This document shows, one piece after another, positions 7,930 to 20,395 of a DNA stretch of 20,562 bases. How positions within the stretch are numbered: the first letter of the stretch is position 1; each line of letters opens with the position of its first letter. The position numbers and the translations under genes were made by a program. Origin of the DNA: Myxococcota bacterium (lineage in GTDB: Bacteria; Myxococcota; Myxococcia; Myxococcales; Myxococcaceae). The notes beneath the pieces are model-generated. The model ran no database searches, was not told where the DNA came from, and worked only from the letters and a program-made list of their open reading frames with translations. The DNA is taken from assembly GCA_049322495.1 (NCBI GenBank), contig JBMORD010000219.1:64001-84562 (forward strand), read 5' to 3'.

Positions 7930-9305
7930 AGCGCCTCGTCGTCGCGGCCGCGCTCTTCTTCGGGTGCGCGACTCCCCTGCGCGTGAGCGAGGGGCGGGTG
8001 CTGCCTCCGGAGCTGCAGTTCGACCCGACCAGGCTCTCCGTTGGCGCTCCTGCGACGGTGCCCGCGCCTGCGGTGGAGCACCTCGCGCTCCCGAACGGGC
8101 TGCGGGTCTCGTTCGTCGAAGCGCGCGGCGCCGGCCTGGTCGACGTCTCGCTGCTGGTGCGCTGTGGGCGAGTCGACGACGCCCCGGGCGTGCCCGGTGC
8201 GAGCGAGGCGATGCTCTCGCTGGCGTTCTCCGGCGGGGCTGGCGACCTCGATGCCCGGGCGCTCCGCGCGGGCTTCCGGGCGCTGGGGAGCGTGCCCGCG
8301 CTGTCGGTCGACGACGGAGAGATGTGGGCGGCCTCGCTGGTGCTGTCGGAGCACCTCGAGCGCTACCTCGAGCTCGTCGCGCTGGTGCTGCGCGCCCCGC
8401 GCTTCGAGGCGGACGCGGTGCGTGACGAGCTGGAGCGTCGGTCGCGCGCCGTCGAGCTGCCTGCCACGCGTGCGAGCAGCCTCGCCTTCGTGGCGCGTCA
8501 GCGCGCCATCTACGCGGGCAGTCCTCAGCTCGCGCAGTCGGTCAGCAGCGGTGCCCTGGCGAAGCTCTCGCGCGAGCAGCTCGTCGAGCGTGCGAGTCGC
8601 TGCCTCGGCGCGAGCAACGTCGCGCTGGCCGTCTCGGGAGACCTCTCCCGCGCGCAGCTCGAGGCGGCGCTCGCCCCGCTGGCCGCCGTTCCCACCGGCG
8701 CGTCGGTCACGCATCCTCCGGCGCCGTTCGTCGCGCGCGCGCGTTCCGTGACGCTGCAGCCCACCGATGCCGACCAGGTCGACGTGACGCTCGTCGGTCC
8801 CGGCTTGCCCCCCGGCGGAGACCGGAGCGCGGCGAACCTGCTCGCGGAGCTCGTCCGCTCGAGCCTGCAGTGGGAGCTCCGCGACGCGGGCAAGGTCTAC
8901 TCCGTGCGGGTGATGGTCGACGTCGGCCCGGGCGACGGGGCGACGTGGGTGCGCTTCACGACTCGGCGAGAGGTGGCCTTCGAGGCCACGCGCCGCGCCC
9001 TCTCGATGTTCGAGCGCTGGTGGCAGCGCTGGCCGCTGACGACCGAGCTGATCGACAAGGTGAAGAAGCGGCAGTCGCGGAACCTCGAGCCGCCCGAGCG
9101 ACGCGCCTTCGCGCACGCGCGCGCACGCCTGCAGGACCTCGCCATCTTCGACGGAGTGGCCTGGGACGCAGGGCCCCTCGAGGTGAAGGAGCACCAGCTG
9201 CGCGCCTTCTTCGTCCGCGCCTTCAAACCTGTGCAGCTCCAGCTCGTCGTGACCGGGCCGTTCGACCCGGCCAGCCCCTGGCAGACCCTCGCGGCGCCGA
9301 AGTGA
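7926..9305 (+). CDS. M16-like peptidase partner subunit, predicted non-catalytic, lipoprotein
   Basis: The track ORF 7692..9305 has an Arg/Pro-rich N-extension. The real start is the ATG at 7926 (Met 79), which has GGAGGG upstream and forms an ATGA overlap with the upstream stop. Signal peptide MKRLVVAAALFFGC (lipobox). M16 two-domain length, but HxxEH is absent (GASEAMLSLAFSGG at the equivalent position), so it is the inactive partner of an M16B-type heterodimer. Confidence 0.75.
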   Translation: MKRLVVAAALFFGCATPLRVSEGRVLPPELQFDPTRLSVGAPATVPAPAVEHLALPNGLRVSFVEARGAGLVDVSLLVRCGRVDDAPGVPGASEAMLSLAFSGGAGDLDARALRAGFRALGSVPALSVDDGEMWAASLVLSEHLERYLELVALVLRAPRFEADAVRDELERRSRAVELPATRASSLAFVARQRAIYAGSPQLAQSVSSGALAKLSREQLVERASRCLGASNVALAVSGDLSRAQLEAALAPLAAVPTGASVTHPPAPFVARARSVTLQPTDADQVDVTLVGPGLPPGGDRSAANLLAELVRSSLQWELRDAGKVYSVRVMVDVGPGDGATWVRFTTRREVAFEATRRALSMFERWWQRWPLTTELIDKVKKRQSRNLEPPERRAFAHARARLQDLAIFDGVAWDAGPLEVKEHQLRAFFVRAFKPVQLQLVVTGPFDPASPWQTLAAPK

Positions 9306-9308
9306 AGG

Positions 9309-9782
9309 TCAGCGCCCGCGCTTCTGGTACGTGCCCATCAGCACCGCGGTCGCCAGCACGTGGCCTTCCATCGCCGCCTCGAGCTGCTTGCGCTTCGGCG
9401 TGTGCAGGTCGGGCAGCACGGTGTCGAGCGCGAACAGCCGGTGGAAGTAGCGGTGCCGGCCGATGGGCGGGCAGGGGCCGCCGTACCCGGTGCGGCCGGA
9501 GTCGGTGACGCCCTCCAGCGCGCCGCGTGGGAGCTGCCGCACGTTCTGCTCGAGGCCGTGGCAGCTCGCGGGGAGGTTGTAGACGGCCCAGTGCAGCCAC
9601 ACGCGCTTCGGCGCTGCCGGGTCCGGCGCGTCGGGGTCGTCGATGATCAGCACGAAGCTCTTCGTGCCCGCGGGGGCGCCGCTCCAGCTCAGCGGGGGTG
9701 ACTCGTCGTCGCCTTCGCAGGTGAAGACCGCGGGGAGCTCGGCGCCGTCCTGGAAGGCGGGTGAGGTGAGGGTGAGCGTCAT
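9309..9782 (-). CDS. YbhB/YbcL family PEBP (Raf-kinase-inhibitor-like) protein
   Basis: The track ORF 9309..10379 carries a 199-aa Arg-rich N-extension. The true start is Met 200 (ATG at 9780-9782) with a perfect AGGAGG 8 nt upstream. MTLTLTSPAFQDGAELPAVFTCEGDDESPPLSW...IIDDPDAPDP...GYGGPCPPIGRHRYFHRLFALD is a textbook bacterial PEBP. Confidence 0.85.
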   Translation of the reverse strand: MTLTLTSPAFQDGAELPAVFTCEGDDESPPLSWSGAPAGTKSFVLIIDDPDAPDPAAPKRVWLHWAVYNLPASCHGLEQNVRQLPRGALEGVTDSGRTGYGGPCPPIGRHRYFHRLFALDTVLPDLHTPKRKQLEAAMEGHVLATAVLMGTYQKRGR

Positions 9783-9814
9783 GACGGGGTCCTCCTGGGC
9801 GGAGGATACGGCCG

Positions 9815-11563
9815 TCAGTCGACGCCGGCGTCGACGCTGTTGAGCTTTCTCGTGCCCATGGCTGATGGCCACGCGTAGCTGGTCCAGCTGTCGAGCCCCC
9901 ACACCGTGATGCCGAACGGGAGCGCGCTCGTCGCCGAGTGCACGCCGGCCTCGCAGCCGCTCGAGAGGTTGAGGCTCCACCCCAGCGTCGCGTACTGCGT
10001 GTCGGGCGTGACGGTGTGCCACGAGAGCGTCGGACCGCAGTCGAGCGACACCGGCGCGAACCGGCCGTTCACCGCGCGGCGCACGAAGACGAGCTGGGTC
10101 TGGGTGTACGTCGGGTCGACGAAGAAGAGGTGCTTCGCGAGGAACTGCCCGGGCGGCACGAGCAGCACCCAGTCGGGGTCGCCGAGGCCGCCGAAGTCCC
10201 AGCCTCCCGTCATCAGCTGCGAGATGCCGAAGACGTGCTCGTCGTCCTGTGCGGTGACGACGAAGGGCCCGCGCGCGGCGAACTCCACCTGCTGGCCGGC
10301 GGCGAGCGTCCGCGGCGCGCCGGCGACCGGCGGGGTCCACGTCAGCGTGGTGCCGTCCACCACGCCCACCACGCGCCACAGCGCCTCTTCCTCGTCGGCG
10401 CCGCGCGTCGGGTAGCGCACGCCGACGTACTCATGGCTGAGCTGCGCGACCGGCGGGAGCTGCTGATGCGCGGAGTCGCACGCCTGCGTGCCGAGCGGCT
10501 TGTTCATGCACGGCGTGCCGCCGAACACCGCGACGGGGCGCGACGAGCGGATGAAGGCCCCACCGAGCTCGGCGCTCTGGAGCACCTGCGCCACCTCACC
10601 CTTCGCCAGGGTCCAGCTGGCGAGAGCGCCCGCCGCGGCGCCCGGCAGCCCCGGCCCGCTGGAGATCGCCACCGGGGCCTTGAGCTGCACCACGGTGCGG
10701 TCCTCCTGCGCGACGATCTGCAGGTAGGCGTTCGGTGCGGGCGTCATCGCCACGTACGACGTCGACCACGCGGAGGTGGGCAGCAGCAGGCTCGCGCTCG
10801 TCACGTGGCTCGTCGCGCCGCCGTACGGGTAGAGGTCCCACGCCGCGACCGGCGCGGTGGTCTTCACCACGAAGGCGTCGAAGCGCGCGCCATCGTCGAA
10901 CTGGTACGCGTCGGACACCGCCGGCTCGACCGGGCAGAGCACGCGCCCGGGGAAGTCGCCGAGCGTCGAGTGCGCGAGGAACAGCAGCGCCATCTCGCCC
11001 GGCGGGAGCGACACCTTGCCGCCCACCGTCGGCAGCGGCTCATAGGTGAGCTCGCCGCTGCCCTGCCGCACTGCGCGCCGCGCGAAGTCGCGGGCGTCGA
11101 GCGTACGGGTGCCACGGGTCACCTCGAGCTGCACCGCGCGCTGGCGCGTGTTGGCGACGATGACCGCGTAGCAGGAGCCCTTCGTCTCGAACTGGGGAGG
11201 CACCGCCGCGGCGTAGAACTCGCACCCCAGCGTGCTCTGCTCGGCGACGGCGGCGACGCAGGGCGACAGGCAGCTCGCCACCGCGCAGACCAGGCCCGAC
11301 GCACAGCGCGTGGCGTTCCCTGCGCAGTCGACGACGCTCAGGCCATCGGCGCTGCAGCCCGGGCAGACACCGCCATCGACGCCGCCGTCGGCCCCCGCGC
11401 CTCCGCCACCGCCTGGCTGCATCCCGGGGCCGGAGGAGATCGGCCGCCCGCCGCCCGGCGTCGGCTCGCGCGGCTCGCATTGGCACCCGCAGAGGAGAAC
11501 CACGCCGAGCACCGCCCACGCGCGCATGACGACCAGTAGGCCGCGAAGCGGGGCCGCGGTCAA
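9815..11563 (-). CDS. secreted Cys-rich protein with signal peptide (possible lipoprotein); unknown function
   Basis: TTG start at 11561-11563, with GGAGAGG 5 nt upstream on the minus strand (alternative in-frame ATG at 11527, Met 13). Signal peptide ...LLVVMRAWAVLGVVLLCGCQC. About 14 Cys fall in the first ~120 mature residues (CPGCSADGLSVVDCAGNATRCASGLVCAVASCLSPC), followed by a long beta-rich region. Confidence 0.65.
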   Translation of the reverse strand: MTAAPLRGLLVVMRAWAVLGVVLLCGCQCEPREPTPGGGRPISSGPGMQPGGGGGAGADGGVDGGVCPGCSADGLSVVDCAGNATRCASGLVCAVASCLSPCVAAVAEQSTLGCEFYAAAVPPQFETKGSCYAVIVANTRQRAVQLEVTRGTRTLDARDFARRAVRQGSGELTYEPLPTVGGKVSLPPGEMALLFLAHSTLGDFPGRVLCPVEPAVSDAYQFDDGARFDAFVVKTTAPVAAWDLYPYGGATSHVTSASLLLPTSAWSTSYVAMTPAPNAYLQIVAQEDRTVVQLKAPVAISSGPGLPGAAAGALASWTLAKGEVAQVLQSAELGGAFIRSSRPVAVFGGTPCMNKPLGTQACDSAHQQLPPVAQLSHEYVGVRYPTRGADEEEALWRVVGVVDGTTLTWTPPVAGAPRTLAAGQQVEFAARGPFVVTAQDDEHVFGISQLMTGGWDFGGLGDPDWVLLVPPGQFLAKHLFFVDPTYTQTQLVFVRRAVNGRFAPVSLDCGPTLSWHTVTPDTQYATLGWSLNLSSGCEAGVHSATSALPFGITVWGLDSWTSYAWPSAMGTRKLNSVDAGVD

Positions 11564-11662
11564 TGCAGCCTCTCCGCGAGTCGGGCTCGACCTCCAGACG
11601 ACACCTGCGCGCGCGGCGACGGCGCACTATGCATTTCGAGCGACCCCAGCAAGGAGTAGCCC

Positions 11663-12034
11663 ATGAGCAGAGCCCCCGAACGACGTCGCTTCTGGCGCGC
11701 GACCTTCCACGCGCCGGTGACGCTCGCCGACGAGCGCGCCGAGTGTGCCGCGCAGCTCGAGGACATCTCGCTGCACGGCGCGCTGCTCGAGGTGCCCGAC
11801 GGCTGGGGCTCGGAGGTCGGCAGCACCTGTCGCTTCACGGTGCGGCTGGGCTCGAGTGATGGGCCCAGCATCTCGATGAGCGGCCGGGTGCGCCACCGCG
11901 AGGGGCGCCACGTCGGCGTGGAGTGCGAGAGCATCGACCTCGACAGCATCACCCACCTCCGGCGCCTGGTGGAGCTCAACAGCGGAGACCCGTCACTGCT
12001 CGAGACCGAGCTGGCCGCGCTGATCCACGGCTGA
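11663..12034 (+). CDS. PilZ domain protein (c-di-GMP receptor)
   Basis: RxxxR motif (ERRRFWR) and D-x-S-x-G-G motif (DISLHGALL), which are the two c-di-GMP-binding signatures of PilZ. 123 aa; AAGGAG RBS ~7 nt upstream of the ATG. Confidence 0.8.
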   Translation: MSRAPERRRFWRATFHAPVTLADERAECAAQLEDISLHGALLEVPDGWGSEVGSTCRFTVRLGSSDGPSISMSGRVRHREGRHVGVECESIDLDSITHLRRLVELNSGDPSLLETELAALIHG

Positions 12035-12037
12035 AGC

Positions 12038-13435
12038 TCAGTCGGCAGGCGTGACGCGCACCGCGAGCAGGTGCCCGTTGCTCGCCGCGAGCTGCGCCGC
12101 GAGCGCGAGCTCGGCGGGCGTGCCGGTCCACGTGAAGTCGAGCGTCGGCGGTGGTGCTCTCGGCGCGTCGACGCGGAGGACCTCGTTCCAGCGCACGGTG
12201 TCGGTCGCGCGCGTCACCACCAGCGCCTCGCCGTCGAGCGTGGCGCGCCCCACGCAGCCCTCGCACACCTCGTCGGTGAAGAGCAGGCGCACGGGCACGG
12301 CGAGCTGCACGTCGGCGACGATGGCCGCCACGCTCGCGAGCAGCGGCGCGAGCCCCGCGGTGTGCGGCTGCTTCGCGCGGCCGACGAGCTCGAGCGAGAA
12401 GCCGCGGCCGTGGGCCTCGCGCAGCAGCGGCTCGAGCTGCGCGCGCGTGAGCGACGGCGTGAGGCTGACGGCCACCCACGTCATGCCCCAGCGGGCCTCG
12501 AGCGCCCCATCATCGAGCGCGCCCGGCAGCGTGAGCGCCTCGGTGCTCGTGGCGAGCCCCTCCACCGTCTGCAGCGGCGTCTGCGGGGCGGGGTCGCTGC
12601 GGAGCGCCTGCTCGCCGAGCACCAGCAGGCCCCGGGCTCCAACACCGAAGACGACGAGCGCGGCGGCGGTCGAGAGGCCCACGAGGCGGGAGCTGCGCGC
12701 CGCGACGACGCCACCGGCCACCGCGACCACGAGGCTGGCGAGGAACAGGCCCGCCGCGAGGCGCGAGAGCGGCTCGAGCTCCCGCGCGGTCGCGAGGACG
12801 AGGGCGAGGCGGTCGACGGGCGCCGCGTGGGCGATGGCGCGGAACGCGCTGCGCACCTCGAGCACGCGCAGCAGCGCCGCGCCGAGTGAGGCGGCCAGCA
12901 CGCTCGCCCCCAGCGCGGTCACCAGGCGCGCGCCGCGCTGCGGTGCGCCGAGGGCGACGAGCGCGGCGACGGCGAGCGCCAGACAGGCAGCGGTGAGGAT
13001 CGCCAGCGCCTGCGACGAGAGCGAGAGCAGCTCGCTGATCGACCCCGCGAGGATGGTGGCGCGATCGAGCGGCGAGGCGTGGATCACCGCCGCGCGCGCG
13101 GCGCCCATGCCGTTGCTGGTGCCGAAGAAGGCGGCCACCGAGGTGAGCAGGAAGGGCGAGAGGGCGAGCGCGCTCGAGAGCGACGGGCGGCGCACCGAGA
13201 GCCCCATCAGCCCCGCGCTCAGCAGCCCCGCGAGGCCGCTGGTGGCGAGCACCACGTAGCTGAAGAGGCCTCCTTCGGCGACGGTCTCGGCGAGCGTCGC
13301 GAAGCCTTCGCCATCGGCGGCGCGCGTGAGCACGAGCAGCAGCGCGAACGACAGCGGGCCCGCGGCGAGCACCAGCGCGCCCGAGAGCAGGGCGAGCGAC
13401 ATCGGCCCGGACGTCTGTGGCGACTTCGATTCCAT
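12038..13435 (-). CDS. polytopic integral membrane protein with C-terminal soluble domain; unknown function
   Basis: The first ~300 aa has about 8 hydrophobic helices (LALLSGALVLAAGPLSFALLLVL..., LVVFGVGARGLLVL...). The ~165-aa C-terminus is non-hydrophobic. Divergent from ATP-grasp gene 2, with a shared 68-nt intergenic region. Confidence 0.6.
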   Translation of the reverse strand: MESKSPQTSGPMSLALLSGALVLAAGPLSFALLLVLTRAADGEGFATLAETVAEGGLFSYVVLATSGLAGLLSAGLMGLSVRRPSLSSALALSPFLLTSVAAFFGTSNGMGAARAAVIHASPLDRATILAGSISELLSLSSQALAILTAACLALAVAALVALGAPQRGARLVTALGASVLAASLGAALLRVLEVRSAFRAIAHAAPVDRLALVLATARELEPLSRLAAGLFLASLVVAVAGGVVAARSSRLVGLSTAAALVVFGVGARGLLVLGEQALRSDPAPQTPLQTVEGLATSTEALTLPGALDDGALEARWGMTWVAVSLTPSLTRAQLEPLLREAHGRGFSLELVGRAKQPHTAGLAPLLASVAAIVADVQLAVPVRLLFTDEVCEGCVGRATLDGEALVVTRATDTVRWNEVLRVDAPRAPPPTLDFTWTGTPAELALAAQLAASNGHLLAVRVTPAD

Positions 13436-13503
13436 GCCGCACGTTTGAGACGCGCGCCCAACGAAGTCAACGAACGCGCGGACGCCTGTAGTACGAGTCG
13501 TTC
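13436..13503. promoter_or_regulatory. divergent promoter region between membrane protein gene (-) and ATP-grasp gene 2 (+)
   Basis: TAGTAC ends exactly 9 nt before the ATG at 13504 and there is no SD. This matches the spacing and TAG-hexamer position seen upstream of ATP-grasp gene 1. Confidence 0.3.
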
Positions 13504-14715
13504 ATGCGCACCGTCGTCTTCGTCGTCCCGTACCCCGCGGAAACGTCCATCCGCTTCGCGCGCGCCCTCGCGGAGTTGAAGAGCGTCCGGCTCATCGGCC
13601 TGGTCCAGAAGGCGCCCACGGGGCCGGCGGCGAAGCCCTTCGCCAACTTCGTGAAGGTCGACGACGCGTTCGACGTGAAGCAGCTCATCGGGGCCTGCGA
13701 GAAGGTGCGCAAGCGGTACGGCGGGCTCCACACGGTGCAGGGCGTGCTCGAGCCGCTGCAGGTGCCGCTCGCGGAGGTGCGCGCGCACTTCGGCATTCCC
13801 GGCACGTCGCCGAAGACGGCGGATCTCTTCCGCGACAAGGCGCGCATGAAGGACGCGCTGCGGGCGGCTGGGCTGCCGTGCGCGCGGCACCGCCTCATCG
13901 GCTCGCTCGCCGACGCCATCGGCTTCGTGCAGCAGGTCGGCTTCCCCATCGTGCTCAAGCCACCCGCAGGCGCGGGCTGCAAGGCGACCTGGCGCATCAA
14001 GAGCCTCGAGGAGCTGCAGAGCGCCATCGAGGCCATCCACCCGCGGCCCGACAGCCCGACCCTCGCCGAGGAGTTCCTCAAGGGCCGCGAGTACTGCTTC
14101 GACACCGTCACCGTGAAGGGCAAGGTGCGCTTCGAGAACGTGAGCCGCTACTACCCGGGCCCGCTCGAGGTGACCGAGAACCCGTGGATCCAGTGGACCA
14201 CGCTGCAGCCGCAGCACCTCACGCCGGATCTCGACGACGCGCGCGAGCTGGGTCGCAAGGCGATCAAGGCGCTCGGGCTGTCGACCGGCTTCACGCACAT
14301 GGAGTGGTTCCGCCGCGACGACGGCACGCTGGCCATCGGGGAGATCGCCGCCCGCCCGCCCGGCGCGAACTTCGTGGAGATGATGGGCTTCGGGCACGAC
14401 GCCGACATGTACCGGGCGTGGGCGCGCGCGGTGGTCGACGAGGCGTTCGACGGGCCGTTCGAGCGCCAGTACGCGGTGGGCTGCGCGTACCTGCGCGGCA
14501 TGGGCCGCGGCCGCGTGCAGCGCGTGACGGGCGTGAAGGAGGCGCAGGAGAAGGTGAAGGGCCTGGTGATGAAGGCGAAGCTCCCGCGCGTGGGCCAGCC
14601 CAGGTCGGATCACTACGAGGGCGACGGCTACGTCATCGTGCGCCACCCCGACACCGAGGTGGTCAAGCGCGCGCTCAAGACGCTCATCGAGACCATCCGC
14701 ATCGAGTACGCATGA
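13504..14715 (+). CDS. ATP-grasp domain ligase (paralogue of 5213..6433)
   Basis: EEFLKGREYCFDTVTV, GFTHMEWFRRDDG and GEIAARPPGANF motifs, and a pre-ATP-grasp N-domain. Its stop overlaps the start of the next gene (ATGA at 14712-14715). Confidence 0.85.
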   Translation: MRTVVFVVPYPAETSIRFARALAELKSVRLIGLVQKAPTGPAAKPFANFVKVDDAFDVKQLIGACEKVRKRYGGLHTVQGVLEPLQVPLAEVRAHFGIPGTSPKTADLFRDKARMKDALRAAGLPCARHRLIGSLADAIGFVQQVGFPIVLKPPAGAGCKATWRIKSLEELQSAIEAIHPRPDSPTLAEEFLKGREYCFDTVTVKGKVRFENVSRYYPGPLEVTENPWIQWTTLQPQHLTPDLDDARELGRKAIKALGLSTGFTHMEWFRRDDGTLAIGEIAARPPGANFVEMMGFGHDADMYRAWARAVVDEAFDGPFERQYAVGCAYLRGMGRGRVQRVTGVKEAQEKVKGLVMKAKLPRVGQPRSDHYEGDGYVIVRHPDTEVVKRALKTLIETIRIEYA

Positions 14716-15608
14716 ACCTCCCCGAGAGCATCGCTGGCGTCGTCGAGGTGAAGGTGTACCGCGGCGGTTCCCGGCACTGGCTGCTGATCGAGGTGCCGCA
14801 CGGCGCGACGCGCCGCAGTGAGTACGACGCCGTCGCCGCGAAGCTGAAGAGCCGCCTGCCCGCGCAGCTCGAGCACTTCTTCTTCGTGAACACCGACGTC
14901 GGCGCGCCCGAAGGCGCCGACTGGCTCGGCCGCACGCTCTCGCGCGAGGGGCTCAACGTGGTGGTGGCGCGCTGCGAGCTCCCGCGGACCTTCATCGACA
15001 CCAACCGCGTCATCGAGAAGACCGAGCAGGGCGTGGTGAAGGACGGCCTCACCGCGGCGGTGCCCGGCTACGTCGACTCGCGTGAAGACGTCGCGTGGCT
15101 CTCGTCGCTCCACGCGCAGTACCACCGCGTCGTCGAGCCGCTGTACCAGGAGGTCTGCCGCGGGGCCGACGGGCTGGCGCTGCAGCTCCACTCGTACTCG
15201 CCGCGCTCGGTGGGCATCGAGCGGGTCGACGCCAACATCGTCGAGGCGCTGCACGCCGCGTACGTCCCCGAGGTGTACGCGACGTGGCCCGAGCGGCCGC
15301 CGGTCGACCTCATCTCCGCCACGAAGGACGGCAGCTTCCGCACCGCGCCGCGCCTCGTCGACGCGCTGCTCGCCGAGTACGCGAGCGCCGGCATCGGGGT
15401 GAAGGAGAACGGCACCTACTTCCTCGCGCCCGCCGCGATGGGGATGGTCTACGCGCAGCAGTACCCGCATCAGGTGGTGTGCGTGGAGCTCAACCGCGGC
15501 CTGGTGTGCGACCCCTTCGTGCCCTTCGGAGTCTCGCCGGTGAGCGAAGAGAAGCTCGGAGCGATGGTCTCGCCGCTGGCGCGCGTGCTGGGACAATTTC
15601 TGCGCTGA
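14712..15608 (+). CDS. N-formylglutamate amidohydrolase (FGase) family zinc amidohydrolase
   Basis: The real start is the ATG at 14712 (Met 279 of the off-frame fused track ORF 13878..15608), overlapping the ATP-grasp stop. FGase-family hallmarks: LIEVPHGATRRSE (HxG...E), FIDTNR (D-x-N-R) and LQLHSYSP (second His). 298 aa. Confidence 0.8.
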   Translation: MNLPESIAGVVEVKVYRGGSRHWLLIEVPHGATRRSEYDAVAAKLKSRLPAQLEHFFFVNTDVGAPEGADWLGRTLSREGLNVVVARCELPRTFIDTNRVIEKTEQGVVKDGLTAAVPGYVDSREDVAWLSSLHAQYHRVVEPLYQEVCRGADGLALQLHSYSPRSVGIERVDANIVEALHAAYVPEVYATWPERPPVDLISATKDGSFRTAPRLVDALLAEYASAGIGVKENGTYFLAPAAMGMVYAQQYPHQVVCVELNRGLVCDPFVPFGVSPVSEEKLGAMVSPLARVLGQFLR

Positions 15609-15665
15609 CCACTCCGGCGGGGGCGTACCATTCGCGCGTCGTCCCCTCACACAACCGGAGTCGTC

Positions 15666-16235
15666 ATGAACCTCGTGTCTCGCGTTGGTCTGCTCGCGCT
15701 GCTCGTCGGTGTCCTCGGTGGCTGTGGCTCGGCGTGGAAGGTGGTGCGCGTGTCGGGCCCGCCGTCGGCGCTCACCTCGGTGACCGACGTCGCGGTGGCC
15801 TTCGACTACAGCCAGATGATCATCGAGGGGAAGTACCAGGAGAAGGCGTGGCTCGACGTGAAGACCGCCGAGGATCCGAAGTACCCGGAGACCTGGGCTG
15901 ACCTGAAGGGCCGCTTCGAGAACGCGGTGCTCAACGGCGTGCGCGTGCAGTACCCGGGCGCGCACATGGTCTCGAGCGGGCAGGGCCAGGCGGTGATGGT
16001 GGTGCGGCCGCAGAGCTTCCAGCTCGGCAAGTTCATTCCCTTCTACAACCCGCCCACGGTGATCAACGCCAACCTCGGCTTCGACGTCGGCGGGCAGATC
16101 ACCGACGAGATCAACGTCACGCGCATGTACCCGGCGTCGGTGACGCAGCCCTCGGTCTTCAACCACATCGGCCACGTCGGTGACGGCATCGGCCGGCTCG
16201 GCGGCGCCTTCCTCGAGTCGCGCCGCGGGAAGTGA
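15666..16235 (+). CDS. lipoprotein, unknown function
   Basis: Signal peptide MNLVSRVGLLALLVGVLGGCGS with a lipobox Cys. GGAG lies 6 nt upstream of the ATG. It is 57 nt downstream of the FGase gene on the same strand. Confidence 0.65.
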   Translation: MNLVSRVGLLALLVGVLGGCGSAWKVVRVSGPPSALTSVTDVAVAFDYSQMIIEGKYQEKAWLDVKTAEDPKYPETWADLKGRFENAVLNGVRVQYPGAHMVSSGQGQAVMVVRPQSFQLGKFIPFYNPPTVINANLGFDVGGQITDEINVTRMYPASVTQPSVFNHIGHVGDGIGRLGGAFLESRRGK

Positions 16236-16287: not shown

Positions 16288-16376
16288 GTTGCGCAGCTTG
16301 CGCAGGTCATGGCCGTGTCAGCCGCCCGTGGTGTCGCGGCCCTGCGCGGGCGAAGCGCTTGCTGTTCCGGGGAAGC

Positions 16377-17039
16377 ATGACCCTTCCCCTCCTCGCACTG
16401 CTCACCACGCTGTCCACCGCGGCCGTCGATGACGACCGCGAGCGCGCGCTCGAGACGTACCAGCGCACGCACGCCGAGGTGTCGTTCGGCTACCTCGGGC
16501 AGTGGAGCGACGAGCGCAACCGCGCCCTCGAGCTGAAGTCCTCGGGGGAGAACCCGCCGCTCGCCGGGCTGGTGACCGACCCGTTCCTCGGCGCGCCGTT
16601 CGACGCGACGGTGCTCGCGGGCCCGGCGCTCGAGTGGCGGCTGGTGTCTTCGCAGGTGCGCTTCACCGTGGGCGTGCGCTTCCCCTTCACCAACTTCCGC
16701 CCGTCGGACACGGCGCAGACCGTCTCGCTGCAGGGCGCGCCGCACGAGGTGCTCGTGCGCTCGGTGTCGCTGTGGGATCTCCGCACCGGGTTGGGGTTCG
16801 AGCTGCCGTTTCGTCGCGTGACGCCCTTCGTCGACGTGCTCGGCGACGTGCAGACGCTCAGCACGCAGCTCGTCATCGACGGCGCGCCGGCGACGTACCA
16901 GGGGCGCGCCTTCTCGCTCGGCGGGCGCGTGGGCGTGCGCTACCAGGTGAACCACCTCTTCGTGCTGCTCGCGGCAGAGGCGACGGCGCTCGGTCCGCTG
17001 CGCCTCGGCGGCACGCTCCAGGCGGGCGTCGCCTTCTGA
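16377..17039 (+). CDS. secreted beta-barrel (OMP-like) protein
   Basis: The track ORF starts on TTG at 16359. An ATG at 16377 (Met 7) has GGGGAAG upstream and gives MTLPLLALLTTLSTAAV (signal peptide). The sequence shows an alternating hydrophobic beta-strand pattern, and the C-terminal residue is Phe (...GTLQAGVAF), typical of outer-membrane beta-barrels. Confidence 0.6.
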   Translation: MTLPLLALLTTLSTAAVDDDRERALETYQRTHAEVSFGYLGQWSDERNRALELKSSGENPPLAGLVTDPFLGAPFDATVLAGPALEWRLVSSQVRFTVGVRFPFTNFRPSDTAQTVSLQGAPHEVLVRSVSLWDLRTGLGFELPFRRVTPFVDVLGDVQTLSTQLVIDGAPATYQGRAFSLGGRVGVRYQVNHLFVLLAAEATALGPLRLGGTLQAGVAF

Positions 17040-17625: not shown

Positions 17626-19761
17626 ATGCAGACCCTCGTCGTGCTGATGACCCTGGCCGCGGCCGGTGAGCTGACGCTCTCCGTGGCGCCCTCGACGCCG
17701 TGCGTGGAGCGTTCACGCACGAGCGAGCTCTTGCGTGCGAGGGGGCTCGTGGTGCGTGAGGCGGCGGGCGCGTCGACGCTGGTGGCGAGCGTGTCGCCGC
17801 GCGGGGCGTCGGTGGTGGTGCGCGGCGAGCGTGCTGGCCGTCGGCTCGAGCGCGCGGTGGCGGTGGACGCGGGCGCGTGCGCGGCGGTCGAGCGCATCGT
17901 GGTGGCGTTGCTCGAGAGCTGGGCGGCGCCAACGCCGTCGGTCGCGAAGAGGGCGCGTGATGGGCTCGTGAGCTCAGCCGACGGCGGGGTCCTCCTGGCC
18001 GGGGCTCCGGGCGCGGGTGCTCCCTCGATGGAGGACCCGAACGCCCAGGTGCGCGCCTCAGCTGCAGGCATGGCCGAGCTCAATCGCGCGCGCGCGGTGG
18101 ATGGCGGAACGCCCGGTGCGCGGAATGCGACTGCGCGCGCGACGGGAGACTTCGGCGGTGCGACGGATGGCGGCACCGCCGACGCTCCGAATGCGCGCGC
18201 TCGTGCGATGACCGCTGGGCTCGGTTCCGCGGCGAAGCCCGCGTTCGGCAGTGCGGCAGATGGAGGGACGGTCGGCGCGCGGGAGGCGACTGGGCTCGTC
18301 GATTCCTCGGCGTTCGGTCGTGCGGCGGATGGAGGGATGGTCAGTGCGCGGGATGTGACTGCTCGCGCGATGACGAGCGATTCCTCGGCGACGTCTGCGT
18401 TGCGCGGCGCGACGGATGTCGGCACCGCCGGCGCGCGCGATGCGAGGGCGACGGAGCAGGGGGCGACCGATGCGTCCACTCTCGCGATGGCGATCGCTTC
18501 CTCGGCGACGTCGGATGGCGGCACCGGCGCCCGCGATGCGAGCGCTCGCACGAGGGCGACGGAGCAGGGGGCGACCGATGCATCCACTCGCGCGATGGCG
18601 ATCGCTTCCTCGGCGACGTTGGATGGCGGCACCGGCGCGCGCGATGCGACCACGACGGCGACGGCGACGGAGCAGGGGGCGACCGATGCGTCCACTCGCG
18701 CGATGGCGATCGATTCCTCGGCGACGTCGGATGGCGGCACCGCCGGCGCGCGCGATGTGAGCGCTCGCGCGACGGCGAGGGAGCAGGGCGCGACCGATGC
18801 GTCCACTCGCTCGTTGGCGTCCGGGCTCGACGATTCCTCCGCGAAGCCCGGGGTCGGTGGTCCGGCAGACGGCAGGATGGCCGGTGCTGCGCGGGATGCG
18901 GCCGCTCGCGCAACGGCGACGGATGGCAGCAGCCCCGGCGCTGCTCGAGCGCCGACGTCCGCGTTCGGCGGTGCGACGGATGGCGGAACCGCCGACGTTC
19001 CGGTTGCGACCGCTCGCGCGATGGCGAGCGATTCCTCGGCGACATCTGCGTTCGGCAGTGCGACTGAGGCGTCCACTCGAGGGAAGGCAGCCCGCGGCGT
19101 CGACTCCTCCGCTGGCTCCGTTGATGGCGGAGCGCCCCGAAAGCCCGTCGTCGACGAGGGCGGCCGGACCGATGACGGTGTTCTCGCTTCAGCGGCGGCG
19201 CCCGTCGGCAGCACCGGCGACGCGACCTCCGTGAGCACCGAGTCGCAGCGCACCGGTTGGCTGCTCGACGTCGCGGTTCTCGGCGGAGGCACGCTCGACG
19301 CCGCCGCCCAGGCGACCGGGGTCGGCTCCGTCACCGTGCGCGGCGCGTGGAAGCGGTGGGGCCTGCTGCTCGACGCGGGCCTCGAGTCGACCCGCACCGC
19401 GAGCCGCGACGTCGTCATCGCCACCGCCGACTCGCAGTGGCTCTCGGTGAGCTTCAGCGTCGGCTTCGAGCCCATCTCCCGGCTCACGCTCGACGTCGCG
19501 CTCGGTCTGCGCGGCTGGAGGACGGCCGCGTGGGCGGCGGGCGTCACCACGCGCGACGACAAGGTCGCGCTCTCGTGGGGCGGGCTCGTGTCGGCGGGCC
19601 TCGGCTGGCGGTTGACCGGGCCGGTGTTCCTCCACGCGCGCGCCTTCGGGAGCCTCCGCTCGACGATCGTCCGCTTCAACGTCGAGCCGCTGGGCACGGT
19701 GCTCGAGCTCAACCCCTTGAACTTCGGGCTGCTGGCCGGCGTGCAGTGGCGCTTCGAGTGA
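17626..19761 (+). CDS. repeat-containing secreted protein with C-terminal OMP-like beta-barrel domain
   Basis: N-terminal hydrophobic signal-like segment MQTLVVLMTLAAAG. Residues ~155-505 are Ala/Thr/Ser/Asp/Gly/Arg low complexity built from DSSA...DGGTxGARD units. The C-terminal ~170 aa has alternating beta-strand character and ends ...NFGLLAGVQWRFE. G/C-rich third positions. The antisense ORF 17451..19712 is a shadow. It lies 13 nt upstream of the ECF sigma gene. Confidence 0.7.
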   Translation: MQTLVVLMTLAAAGELTLSVAPSTPCVERSRTSELLRARGLVVREAAGASTLVASVSPRGASVVVRGERAGRRLERAVAVDAGACAAVERIVVALLESWAAPTPSVAKRARDGLVSSADGGVLLAGAPGAGAPSMEDPNAQVRASAAGMAELNRARAVDGGTPGARNATARATGDFGGATDGGTADAPNARARAMTAGLGSAAKPAFGSAADGGTVGAREATGLVDSSAFGRAADGGMVSARDVTARAMTSDSSATSALRGATDVGTAGARDARATEQGATDASTLAMAIASSATSDGGTGARDASARTRATEQGATDASTRAMAIASSATLDGGTGARDATTTATATEQGATDASTRAMAIDSSATSDGGTAGARDVSARATAREQGATDASTRSLASGLDDSSAKPGVGGPADGRMAGAARDAAARATATDGSSPGAARAPTSAFGGATDGGTADVPVATARAMASDSSATSAFGSATEASTRGKAARGVDSSAGSVDGGAPRKPVVDEGGRTDDGVLASAAAPVGSTGDATSVSTESQRTGWLLDVAVLGGGTLDAAAQATGVGSVTVRGAWKRWGLLLDAGLESTRTASRDVVIATADSQWLSVSFSVGFEPISRLTLDVALGLRGWRTAAWAAGVTTRDDKVALSWGGLVSAGLGWRLTGPVFLHARAFGSLRSTIVRFNVEPLGTVLELNPLNFGLLAGVQWRFE
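18088..19141 (+). repeat. intragenic tandem/degenerate repeat region; core units of 108-114 nt (36-38 aa) starting near 18451, 18559, 18667 and 18781
   Basis: Near-identical DNA units acggagcagggggcgaccgatgc(g/a)tccactc(t)cgcgatggcgatcg(c/a)ttcctcggcgacgt(c/t)ggatggcggcacc...; protein units TEQGATDAST(L/R)AMAI(A/D)SSAT(S/L)DGGTGARD.... They are flanked by more degenerate DGGT-containing units. Confidence 0.85.
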
Positions 19762-19774
19762 GTGCGGCGAATCG

Positions 19775-20395
19775 ATGAAGCTGCTTGAAGGGGCGGGCAC
19801 TTCCCTGTCCGTGGAGCTCGCCTTCACCACCATGCGACGCGCGACGACAGCCCCGAGCCTCGAGGACGTGCGACGGCTCTACGTGGCTCACGCGGCGGAG
19901 CTCCGGCAGGCGCTCGCGCGCCTCGCGCCCGAGCTCGACGCCGACGATCTGCTGCAGGAGGTCTTCCTCATCGCGCTCGATCGACCGGAGGCGCTGGTGG
20001 GCGCGGACTCCCCGCGCGCGTGGCTCTTCGGCATCGCAGTGAAGCTCGCGGCCACGCGCCGTCGCACCACGCGGCTGCGTCGCTTCCTCGGGCTCGACGA
20101 GGCCGCCGAGCTGCCGGCCGTCGACGCGCCTTCCCGTACGGTCGAGCAGCGTGACGCGCAGCGCGCCGTCGCCCGGGCGCTCGAGTCGCTCTCGTCGGCC
20201 AAGCGCGAGGCCTTCGTGCTGTTCGAGCTCCAGGGGCTCGCGGGAGAAGAAGTGGCTGAGGCGCTCGGCATTCCCCTCAAGACCGTGTGGACGCGGCTGT
20301 TCCACGCGCGCAAAGAGGTCACCGCGGCGCTCGAGCGCCAGCTGCTCACCGAGGCGCGCACCAGCGGCCTCGCCCGCGAGGAGGTGCGACCATGA
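19775..20395 (+). CDS. ECF (sigma-24/sigma-70 group 4) RNA polymerase sigma factor
   Basis: Region 2 (DADDLLQEVFLIAL...WLFGIAVKLAATRRR) and region 4 (REAFVLFELQGLAGEEVAEALGIPLKTVWTRLFHARKEV). Alternative start at Met 20 (19832, MRRATTAPSLEDVRRLY...). Its stop overlaps the next start (ATGA). Confidence 0.85.
   Translation: MKLLEGAGTSLSVELAFTTMRRATTAPSLEDVRRLYVAHAAELRQALARLAPELDADDLLQEVFLIALDRPEALVGADSPRAWLFGIAVKLAATRRRTTRLRRFLGLDEAAELPAVDAPSRTVEQRDAQRAVARALESLSSAKREAFVLFELQGLAGEEVAEALGIPLKTVWTRLFHARKEVTAALERQLLTEARTSGLAREEVRP

Follow-up and report, generated by a model that had tools for sequence, protein, structure and literature searches.

When the stop codon of a ligase gene overlaps the start codon of an amidohydrolase gene, do the two products make up a self-contained pair that forms and breaks one class of amide bond, or do they belong to something larger? 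The question is raised by a stretch of 20,562 nucleotides from a Myxococcota bacterium of the family Myxococcaceae (GenBank assembly GCA_049322495.1, contig JBMORD010000219.1, positions 64,001 to 84,562 of the forward strand; hereafter the window, of ~72% G+C). In it, an ATP-grasp gene (ligase A; 13504..14715, plus strand, 403 amino acids) runs into a gene for a predicted cytoplasmic protein of 298 amino acids with the fold of N-formylglutamate amidohydrolase (FGase; 14712..15608, plus strand). A preliminary description, made from the sequence alone, had joined these two genes and a lipoprotein gene behind them into a "writer/eraser" module. Our comparison of related genomes leads to a different picture: the two overlapping genes are part of a larger set of ligase and hydrolase genes, restricted to the Myxococcota as far as the loci examined show, and the lipoprotein gene is not a conserved member of it.

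Genes in this high-G+C window were called from third-position G+C, which reaches 0.97 in ligase A. The layout is as the preliminary description had given it: the ATP-grasp gene of 403 codons; the tetranucleotide ATGA (14712..14715, plus strand, read directly from the sequence), in which the ATG of the FGase-like gene shares nucleotides with the TGA stop of ligase A and by which the two genes are coupled; a gap of 57 nucleotides (15609-15665); and the lipoprotein gene. No terminator-like site or promoter was found within these three genes by a scan for the σ70 consensus, which has little power at 72% G+C.

Predicted enzymes of the overlapping genes

Sequence, predicted fold and site residues agree that ligase A is an intact ATP-grasp enzyme of the L-amino-acid-ligase type, for which ligation of amino acids is predicted: its Pfam match is PF02222 (ATP-grasp, 1.6e-11), with LAL_C2 under its cut-off; among the sequences of the PDB, RizA (4wd3) comes first, at 9e-18 with the single sequence and 1.4e-22 with a family profile, and is followed by BL00235 and BacD; and a Foldseek search with the AlphaFold2 model (predicted local distance difference test score, pLDDT, 86.5) places RizA 4wd3 (E 8.7e-30, template-modelling (TM) score 0.78/0.81), BL00235 3vot and YwfE/BacD 3wnz/3vmm on top, all at TM scores of 0.78-0.81, with PurK ranking behind. 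Residues K152, E189/E190, E267, E280, R284 and G287 are invariant in 12 homologues and correspond to the ATP-binding Lys, the hinge Glu-Glu, the Mg-binding Glu and the catalytic Arg with its E-x3-R-x2-G motif. The ligase A motif GEIAARPPGAN aligns to E324...R328..G331-W332 of BacD (ESAARFAG in BacD, GEIAMRIGG in RizA); Ala288 stands at the position of BacD Trp332, where RizA has Gly and BL00235 has Ser. No signal peptide is predicted in ligase A.

The three-domain fold, the length of ~400 amino acids and the catalytic motif are thus common to ligase A and the L-amino acid ligases RizA, BL00235 and BacD (YwfE). Ligase A differs from them in being only 17-20% identical, and in standing not in an antibiotic cluster but within a Myxococcota expansion of 4-5 paralogues encoded beside hydrolases. 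The family is large: we found more than 5,900 homologues, and relatives are encoded in 277 GTDB species genomes.

Better-known identities for ligase A were considered and rejected. The preliminary description had held that membership of a housekeeping family would speak against its proposal; NCBIfam scores for such families, biotin carboxylase among those considered, are only 26-65 bits, far under cut-offs of 143-877 (purK 44 vs 318, purT 31.7 vs 502, Ddl 33 vs 243, rimK_fam 26.7 vs 143.4), and a cyanophycin synthetase is likewise dismissed at 38 bits against cut-offs of 850-877. A ligase of the graspetide/microviridin type, acting on a peptide that ribosomes make and that is modified after translation, does not fit either: among its top 50 matches by fold there are L-amino acid ligases, PurK/PurT and carboxylases but no graspetide ligases, and the intergenic gaps of 57-68 nucleotides leave no room for a precursor gene. 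Nor is this a glutathionylspermidine synthetase/amidase, in which a CHAP amidase is fused to the synthetase: the two activities reside here on separate proteins, and the hydrolase is of FGase rather than CHAP fold.

The second protein matches Pfam PF05013 (FGase) at 7.2e-9, with 36.5 bits against a gathering score of 28.9, so that both families assigned in the preliminary description were right. Searches of PDB sequences by phmmer and by a family profile returned nothing, so that no solved FGase was reached, and no NCBIfam model, HutG included, matches the protein. Its AlphaFold2 model (pLDDT 92, with a poorly predicted extra segment at about residues 100-125) is nearest to two structures of the FGase family, 2q7s and 2odf (E 5e-13 to 1e-10, TM score ~0.6, 17-20% identity), and next to carboxypeptidases A/T, the phage poly-gamma-glutamate hydrolase PghP and AstE (succinylglutamate desuccinylase). 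The motifs PHG (H30), IDxNR (D96, N98, R99), QLHS (H160) and VELNR (E259, R262) are invariant in homologues, which upholds the HxG..E, DxNR and second-His motifs recognized earlier; residues H30, D62, R92, D96, N98, R99, H160, R195, E259 and R262 remain invariant down to 27% identity. The invariant His/Asp/His/Glu and four Arg residues fit a predicted active, metal-dependent amidohydrolase with a carboxylate-binding pocket. No signal peptide is predicted for this protein.

The protein is a member of a small, remote and divergent subfamily of the FGase fold, and is not HutG. It passes the Pfam gathering score, and its His/Asp/His/Glu and Arg-rich motifs are of the type that the preliminary description took for FGase-like; apart from the low identity and TM score, it differs from HutG/FGase in its extra segment, the lack of a HutG model match and the lack of a hut context. 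The family profile found only 268 clusters among 1.84 billion representatives. We rejected a true HutG because there is no equivalog match and no hut gene around: hutH, hutU and hutI were absent among the genes of the window and in the related loci inspected, so the histidine-utilization setting that the preliminary description regarded as damaging to its proposal does not exist here.

Conserved neighbourhood in related genomes

A scan of one genome per GTDB species yielded the 277 relatives of ligase A; the best 80 of these 277, all from Myxococcota metagenome-assembled genomes, served as related loci, at which flanks of up to 8 kb were fetched (some contigs being shorter) and FGase genes were sought by tblastn and by hidden Markov model (HMM) search of six-frame open reading frames (ORFs). 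In the clade nearest to the window, the FGase gene lies directly downstream of ligase A at every locus with downstream sequence (23/23), and it does so too in L026 and in the more basal L083. Eleven metagenome contigs carry FGase homologues at 54-81% identity, each with ligase A immediately upstream. The 4-nucleotide overlap between the two genes recurs in 15 of the 24 related pairs called, and the gap is at most 3 nucleotides in 21/24; the overlap is therefore a conserved feature rather than a product of chance. On a neighbour-joining tree of ligase A the placed FGase-linked loci form one clade (L026, whose ligase A was missed by the gene caller, was not placed).

Two more ligase genes of the window, both absent from the preliminary description, extend this picture. 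The first encodes ligase B (5213..6433, minus strand, 406 amino acids, matched by several Pfam ATP-grasp models), a paralogue of ligase A at ~33% identity, with orthologues of 62-90% identity in ~70/80 related loci. Ligase B stands head-to-head with ligase A across 18-132 bp in ~60/80 relatives; in the subclade of the window, an inserted block separates the two by 2-7 kb. At many loci of Kofleriaceae type (L027-L080, e.g. L063 and L070) the divergent start codons of A and B are 22-24 bp apart, so that both promoters must lie inside the coding sequence of the partner. The second gene, truncated by the window edge, contributes the C-terminal CBS pair of a GCS2-CBS carboxylate-amine ligase (1..450, plus strand; Pfam CBS 2.9e-26). 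Its orthologues, found near ligase B in 24 loci, have 640-700 amino acids and combine PF04107 (GCS2) with CBS in precomputed annotation.

In many relatives a packed operon stands beside the B/A pair and consists of the ATP-grasp ligase C7, an S51-like gene, an enterochelin-esterase-like esterase, the ATP-grasp-like C5, a second esterase and GCS2-CBS, the last often followed by a gene for an AstE/AspA-like deacylase. Examples of the resulting seven-gene operon, in which ligases and hydrolases alternate, are found at L019 118-6714, L085 2952-9919 and L086 2911-9935. Start and stop codons overlap at most of its junctions, most often by 4 nucleotides; as these include hydrolase-hydrolase junctions, we rejected the 4-nucleotide overlap as a specific mark of ligase-hydrolase pairs. 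The neighbourhood frequently also holds C19, a further ATP-grasp paralogue, and a GT5 glycosyltransferase. Relatives thus encode close together 4-5 ATP-grasp paralogues, a GCS2-CBS ligase and ~5 hydrolases (FGase-like, AstE/AspA-like, S51-like and two esterases).

The GT5 gene, glycogen/starch-synthase-like, occurs repeatedly between ligase C7 and the B/A pair (L083 12254-14322; L085 12176-13654; L086 13361-14839; also L146 and L149), and one esterase of the set has an N-terminal domain of Enterochelin_N type. We considered whether the gene set might be linked to a glucan.

Where the FGase gene departs from ligase A, it may still stay with the other members. In the Polyangia loci L085 and L086 it is found several kilobases from A/B, divergent from the S51-like operon and convergent with ligase C7; in L164 it follows the AstE-like gene; and GT5 and C7 are close to it in L146 and L149. 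The FGase gene accordingly accompanies the gene set in at least 3 different gene orders, and that it stays in one neighbourhood while the order is reshuffled gives good grounds to infer a functional link with the ligase system.

The lipoprotein gene and other genes of the window

The third gene of the earlier module (15666..16235, plus strand, 189 amino acids) encodes a lipoprotein by its signal peptide and its lipobox L-G-G-C, and has no Pfam family. Although the gene may be co-transcribed with the pair here, it has no conserved place in the ligase/hydrolase system: tblastn found no homologue within 8 kb of the pair at any of the 80 related genome loci. The family is small (63 proteins); in the source genome of L005 one contig carries both the homologue and the pair, ~830 kb apart, and the homologue in another relative lies beside genes for isoleucyl-tRNA synthetase and SurE, which are unrelated. 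We therefore dropped the lipoprotein as a partner or substrate, since it has no conserved linkage and its homologues lie elsewhere in related genomes. The proposed trio of ATP-grasp, FGase and lipoprotein does not survive this comparison, and the envelope component or lipoprotein that had been offered as a substrate is unlikely because neither ligase A nor the FGase-like enzyme has a signal peptide.

Searches of the window gave no Rfam match and no PHROGs match, and the ideas of a riboswitch or other RNA and of a phage origin were dropped; PADLOC defence-protein models matched neither ligase A, ligase B, the FGase-like protein and the lipoprotein nor their neighbours. The block of ~7 kb between ligases B and A (6434-13503) includes two M16 peptidase genes that overlap by 4 nucleotides, genes for PEBP-like, IgGFc-binding-like (PF17517, 1e-78) and PilZ proteins, and a gene for a 465-amino-acid protein of no known family. 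As L005, L009 and L038 have the IgGFc-like and 465-amino-acid genes at the corresponding place, the insertion is common to the subclade. Between the GCS2-CBS gene and ligase B, the segment 3028-5151 (minus strand) holds phosphofructokinase-family, FHA-domain and small cytochrome-c-like genes, none of which was found at the equivalent place in the 80 related loci.

Downstream of the lipoprotein gene, 16359-17039 (plus strand) encodes a 226-amino-acid protein without a family; six close relatives (L001, L002, L006, L009, L011 and L038) also have it downstream of the pair, at distances that vary over ~1-6 kb, which is probably local synteny rather than a functional link. An ORF of 711 codons follows (17626-19761, plus strand); its product is rich in Ala, Thr, Ser, Asp and Gly, its codon-position signal is weaker, and it has no Pfam family. 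A 108-nucleotide tandem repeat within it (18442-18819, 3.5 copies, 89% matches) gives rise to protein repeats of 36 amino acids. A gene for an extracytoplasmic function (ECF) sigma factor (19775-20395) sits just downstream of this ORF.

A proposed short-peptide metabolism and the alternatives

Taken together, these data suggest a model in which ligase A and the FGase-like enzyme act among the larger set to build and turn over a short non-ribosomal peptide in the cytoplasm; we judge this model to be about evenly poised between right and wrong. In it, ligase A would activate the carboxylate of an amino acid or short peptide as an acyl phosphate for coupling to a second amino acid at the amino group of the latter, and the paralogous ligases would add further residues. 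The resulting peptide would probably be rich in Asp or Glu, because the bonds cut by characterized members of the hydrolase families adjoin acidic residues (those of N-formyl-Glu, N-succinyl-Glu, N-acetyl-Asp, Asp-X and beta-Asp-Arg), because GCS2 enzymes activate glutamate, and because the FGase-like site keeps four invariant Arg residues. Trimming, proofreading or turnover would be the task of the FGase-like enzyme, which would hydrolyse a bond, N-acyl or peptidyl, that leads to an acidic amino acid; in this lineage it would most likely act on what ligase A makes. As for the GCS2 ligase, its CBS pair hints at regulation by adenine nucleotides or ionic strength.

Several observations weigh against this model. 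No FGase gene was found within the fetched flanks at ~54 loci of the Kofleriaceae/Haliangiales/Polyangiaceae clade; the conserved co-occurrence expected in the preliminary description thus holds for one clade, with its 23 genome loci and 11 metagenome loci, and does not extend to the other. About 63 of the 69 distant FGase-like genes (39-56% identity) have no ligase nearby and stand in unrelated contexts, and two distant ones come from contigs whose G+C of 42-44% makes an origin in Myxococcota unlikely. Matches are weak for the S51 and C5-ligase assignments, and in some orthologues also for GCS2. The acidic nature of the peptide is argued solely by analogy with the cleavage specificities of the hydrolase families, and, if unregulated, the stoichiometric co-translation of a ligase with a hydrolase acting on what it makes would squander ATP.

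The unrelated contexts of the distant FGase-like genes indicate that the hydrolase family has a function independent of ligase A; therefore, one FGase-like branch was recruited to the ligase system and the family has a reaction of its own. A self-contained two-gene module, as first conceived, is at odds with this, given also that the FGase gene occurs elsewhere in the larger set in some Polyangia. Two of the distant contexts are recurrent: in one, DUF1015 lies upstream and a class-V aminotransferase downstream, with two GAPDH genes and a gene for a major facilitator superfamily (MFS) transporter near; in the other, a CAT-like acyltransferase lies upstream and an old-yellow-enzyme homologue downstream. 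These two were seen at L135, L144, L145, L150, L155 and L165, and also at L106 and L108. A fatty-acid desaturase is another neighbour of distant FGase-like genes.

The nearest analogue in logic to the peptide model is the pair of cyanophycin synthetase and cyanophycinase (CphA/CphB; the latter a peptidase of family S51), in which an ATP-grasp enzyme builds an Asp-based non-ribosomal peptide and its gene is linked to that of a hydrolase; in relatives of the window locus, likewise, an S51-like gene stands beside an ATP-grasp paralogue. The likeness remains an analogy: CphA is a fusion of ~870 amino acids of ATP-grasp and Mur-ligase domains, and this defining architecture is absent here; and, in comparison with CphB, the S51 match in relatives is weak and the window contains no S51-like gene. 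More generally, Iyer, Abhiman, Burroughs and Aravind reportedly described in 2009 operons that bring peptidases or amidohydrolases together with stand-alone ATP-grasp and GCS2-type ligases, for which the making of peptide metabolites or tags was predicted. In the searchable library we found no literature that pairs ATP-grasp with FGase, formylglutamate amidohydrolase or succinylglutamate desuccinylase, none that links an L-amino acid ligase with myxobacteria, and none that joins three or more of ATP-grasp, Myxococcus, cyanophycinase and aspartoacylase; the one paper found on ATP-grasp enzymes of Myxococcota concerns microviridin-type ligases. The earlier statement that no characterized system matches this combination agrees with that search.

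Four other explanations have to be weighed against the peptide model. A strict writer/eraser pair, in which the FGase-like enzyme cuts exactly the amide bond made by ligase A and so sets the level of one modification or metabolite after the manner of cyanophycin synthetase/cyanophycinase or glutathionylspermidine synthetase/amidase, would account for the stop/start overlap conserved in the clade, and the wider system, with about one hydrolase per ligase in alternation, would fit dedicated pairs. Against this, tight overlaps run throughout the operon, hydrolase-hydrolase junctions included; the FGase gene of Polyangia adjoins other members rather than ligase A; ligase A orthologues without an adjacent FGase include ones of 60-65% identity; and obligatory co-translation of the two activities would amount to a futile ATP cycle. 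We hold such a pair to be unlikely. Protein tagging is highly improbable. RimK or tubulin-tyrosine-ligase-like (TTL) enzymes add residues to proteins, and cytosolic carboxypeptidases remove them; here the ligase would add amino acids to a protein C-terminus or side chain, the FGase-like enzyme would remove them, and the lipoprotein would be a possible target. The relation of the FGase fold to M14 carboxypeptidases would suit this idea, and the very strong conservation of both ligase paralogues could reflect a macromolecular substrate; but the RimK-family model scores 26.7 bits where 143.4 are called for, the best fold matches of ligase A are free-amino-acid ligases and PurK rather than RimK/TTL enzymes, the lipoprotein, unlike the two cytoplasmic enzymes, is exported and has no conserved linkage with them, and no gene for a conserved small acceptor protein was seen at related loci.

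The structural matches themselves raise the possibility of secondary metabolism, as RizA and BacD/YwfE, which among solved proteins come nearest to ligase A, are ligases for antibiotic dipeptides: the L-amino-acid-type ligases would assemble an antibiotic, a dipeptide or oligopeptide like bacilysin, rhizocticin or tabtoxin, with the hydrolases there for maturation or self-protection. We regard this as decidedly unlikely, since ligases A and B keep 60-90% identity from Myxococcia-like to Polyangia-like lineages and occur in 277 species genomes, a conservation atypical of patchy, fast-evolving biosynthetic clusters, and since no gene for a tailoring enzyme, an exporter or warhead synthesis is conserved at the loci inspected. 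Still less can be said for a transient acyl or glutamyl handle, a protecting or carrier residue put on and taken off in consecutive biosynthetic steps as by LysX/LysK, EgtA/EgtC and PuuA/PuuD. Ligase and amidohydrolase are genetically linked in those pathways, and the GCS2 ligase of the present gene set belongs to the family of EgtA; such a scheme is nevertheless very unlikely here, where no conserved gene for an oxidoreductase, aminotransferase, kinase or carrier protein that could process a protected intermediate lies between or near the ligases and hydrolases.

The peptide model can be taken further, to an undescribed, cyanophycin-like cytoplasmic metabolism of peptides or depsipeptides in uncultured Myxococcota, in which 4-5 paralogous ligases and a CBS-regulated GCS2 enzyme, each with a dedicated hydrolase of different fold, would make and degrade a new storage or osmoprotective oligomer. 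We offer this broader reading tentatively, and think it unlikely as it stands.

In conclusion, the stand-alone trio acting on a lipoprotein carries no weight in that form, since the trio fails; the gene set is instead an uncharacterized variant of the known ligase-plus-hydrolase theme, and it is a lead to a putative conserved metabolite. Ligase A represents a new, paralogue-rich branch of the L-amino-acid-ligase type, a family expansion of practical interest given that enzymatic dipeptide synthesis uses L-amino acid ligases. The FGase-like subfamily would add a second function to the FGase fold, for which, to our knowledge, N-formylglutamate hydrolysis is the only characterized reaction. If the larger reading is true, a whole phylum would possess a conserved, energy-consuming pathway of ~10 enzymes whose product has never been seen, and the 60-90% identity of its ligases across orders would point to core physiology—storage, osmoprotection or stress response—rather than to a sporadic antibiotic cluster.

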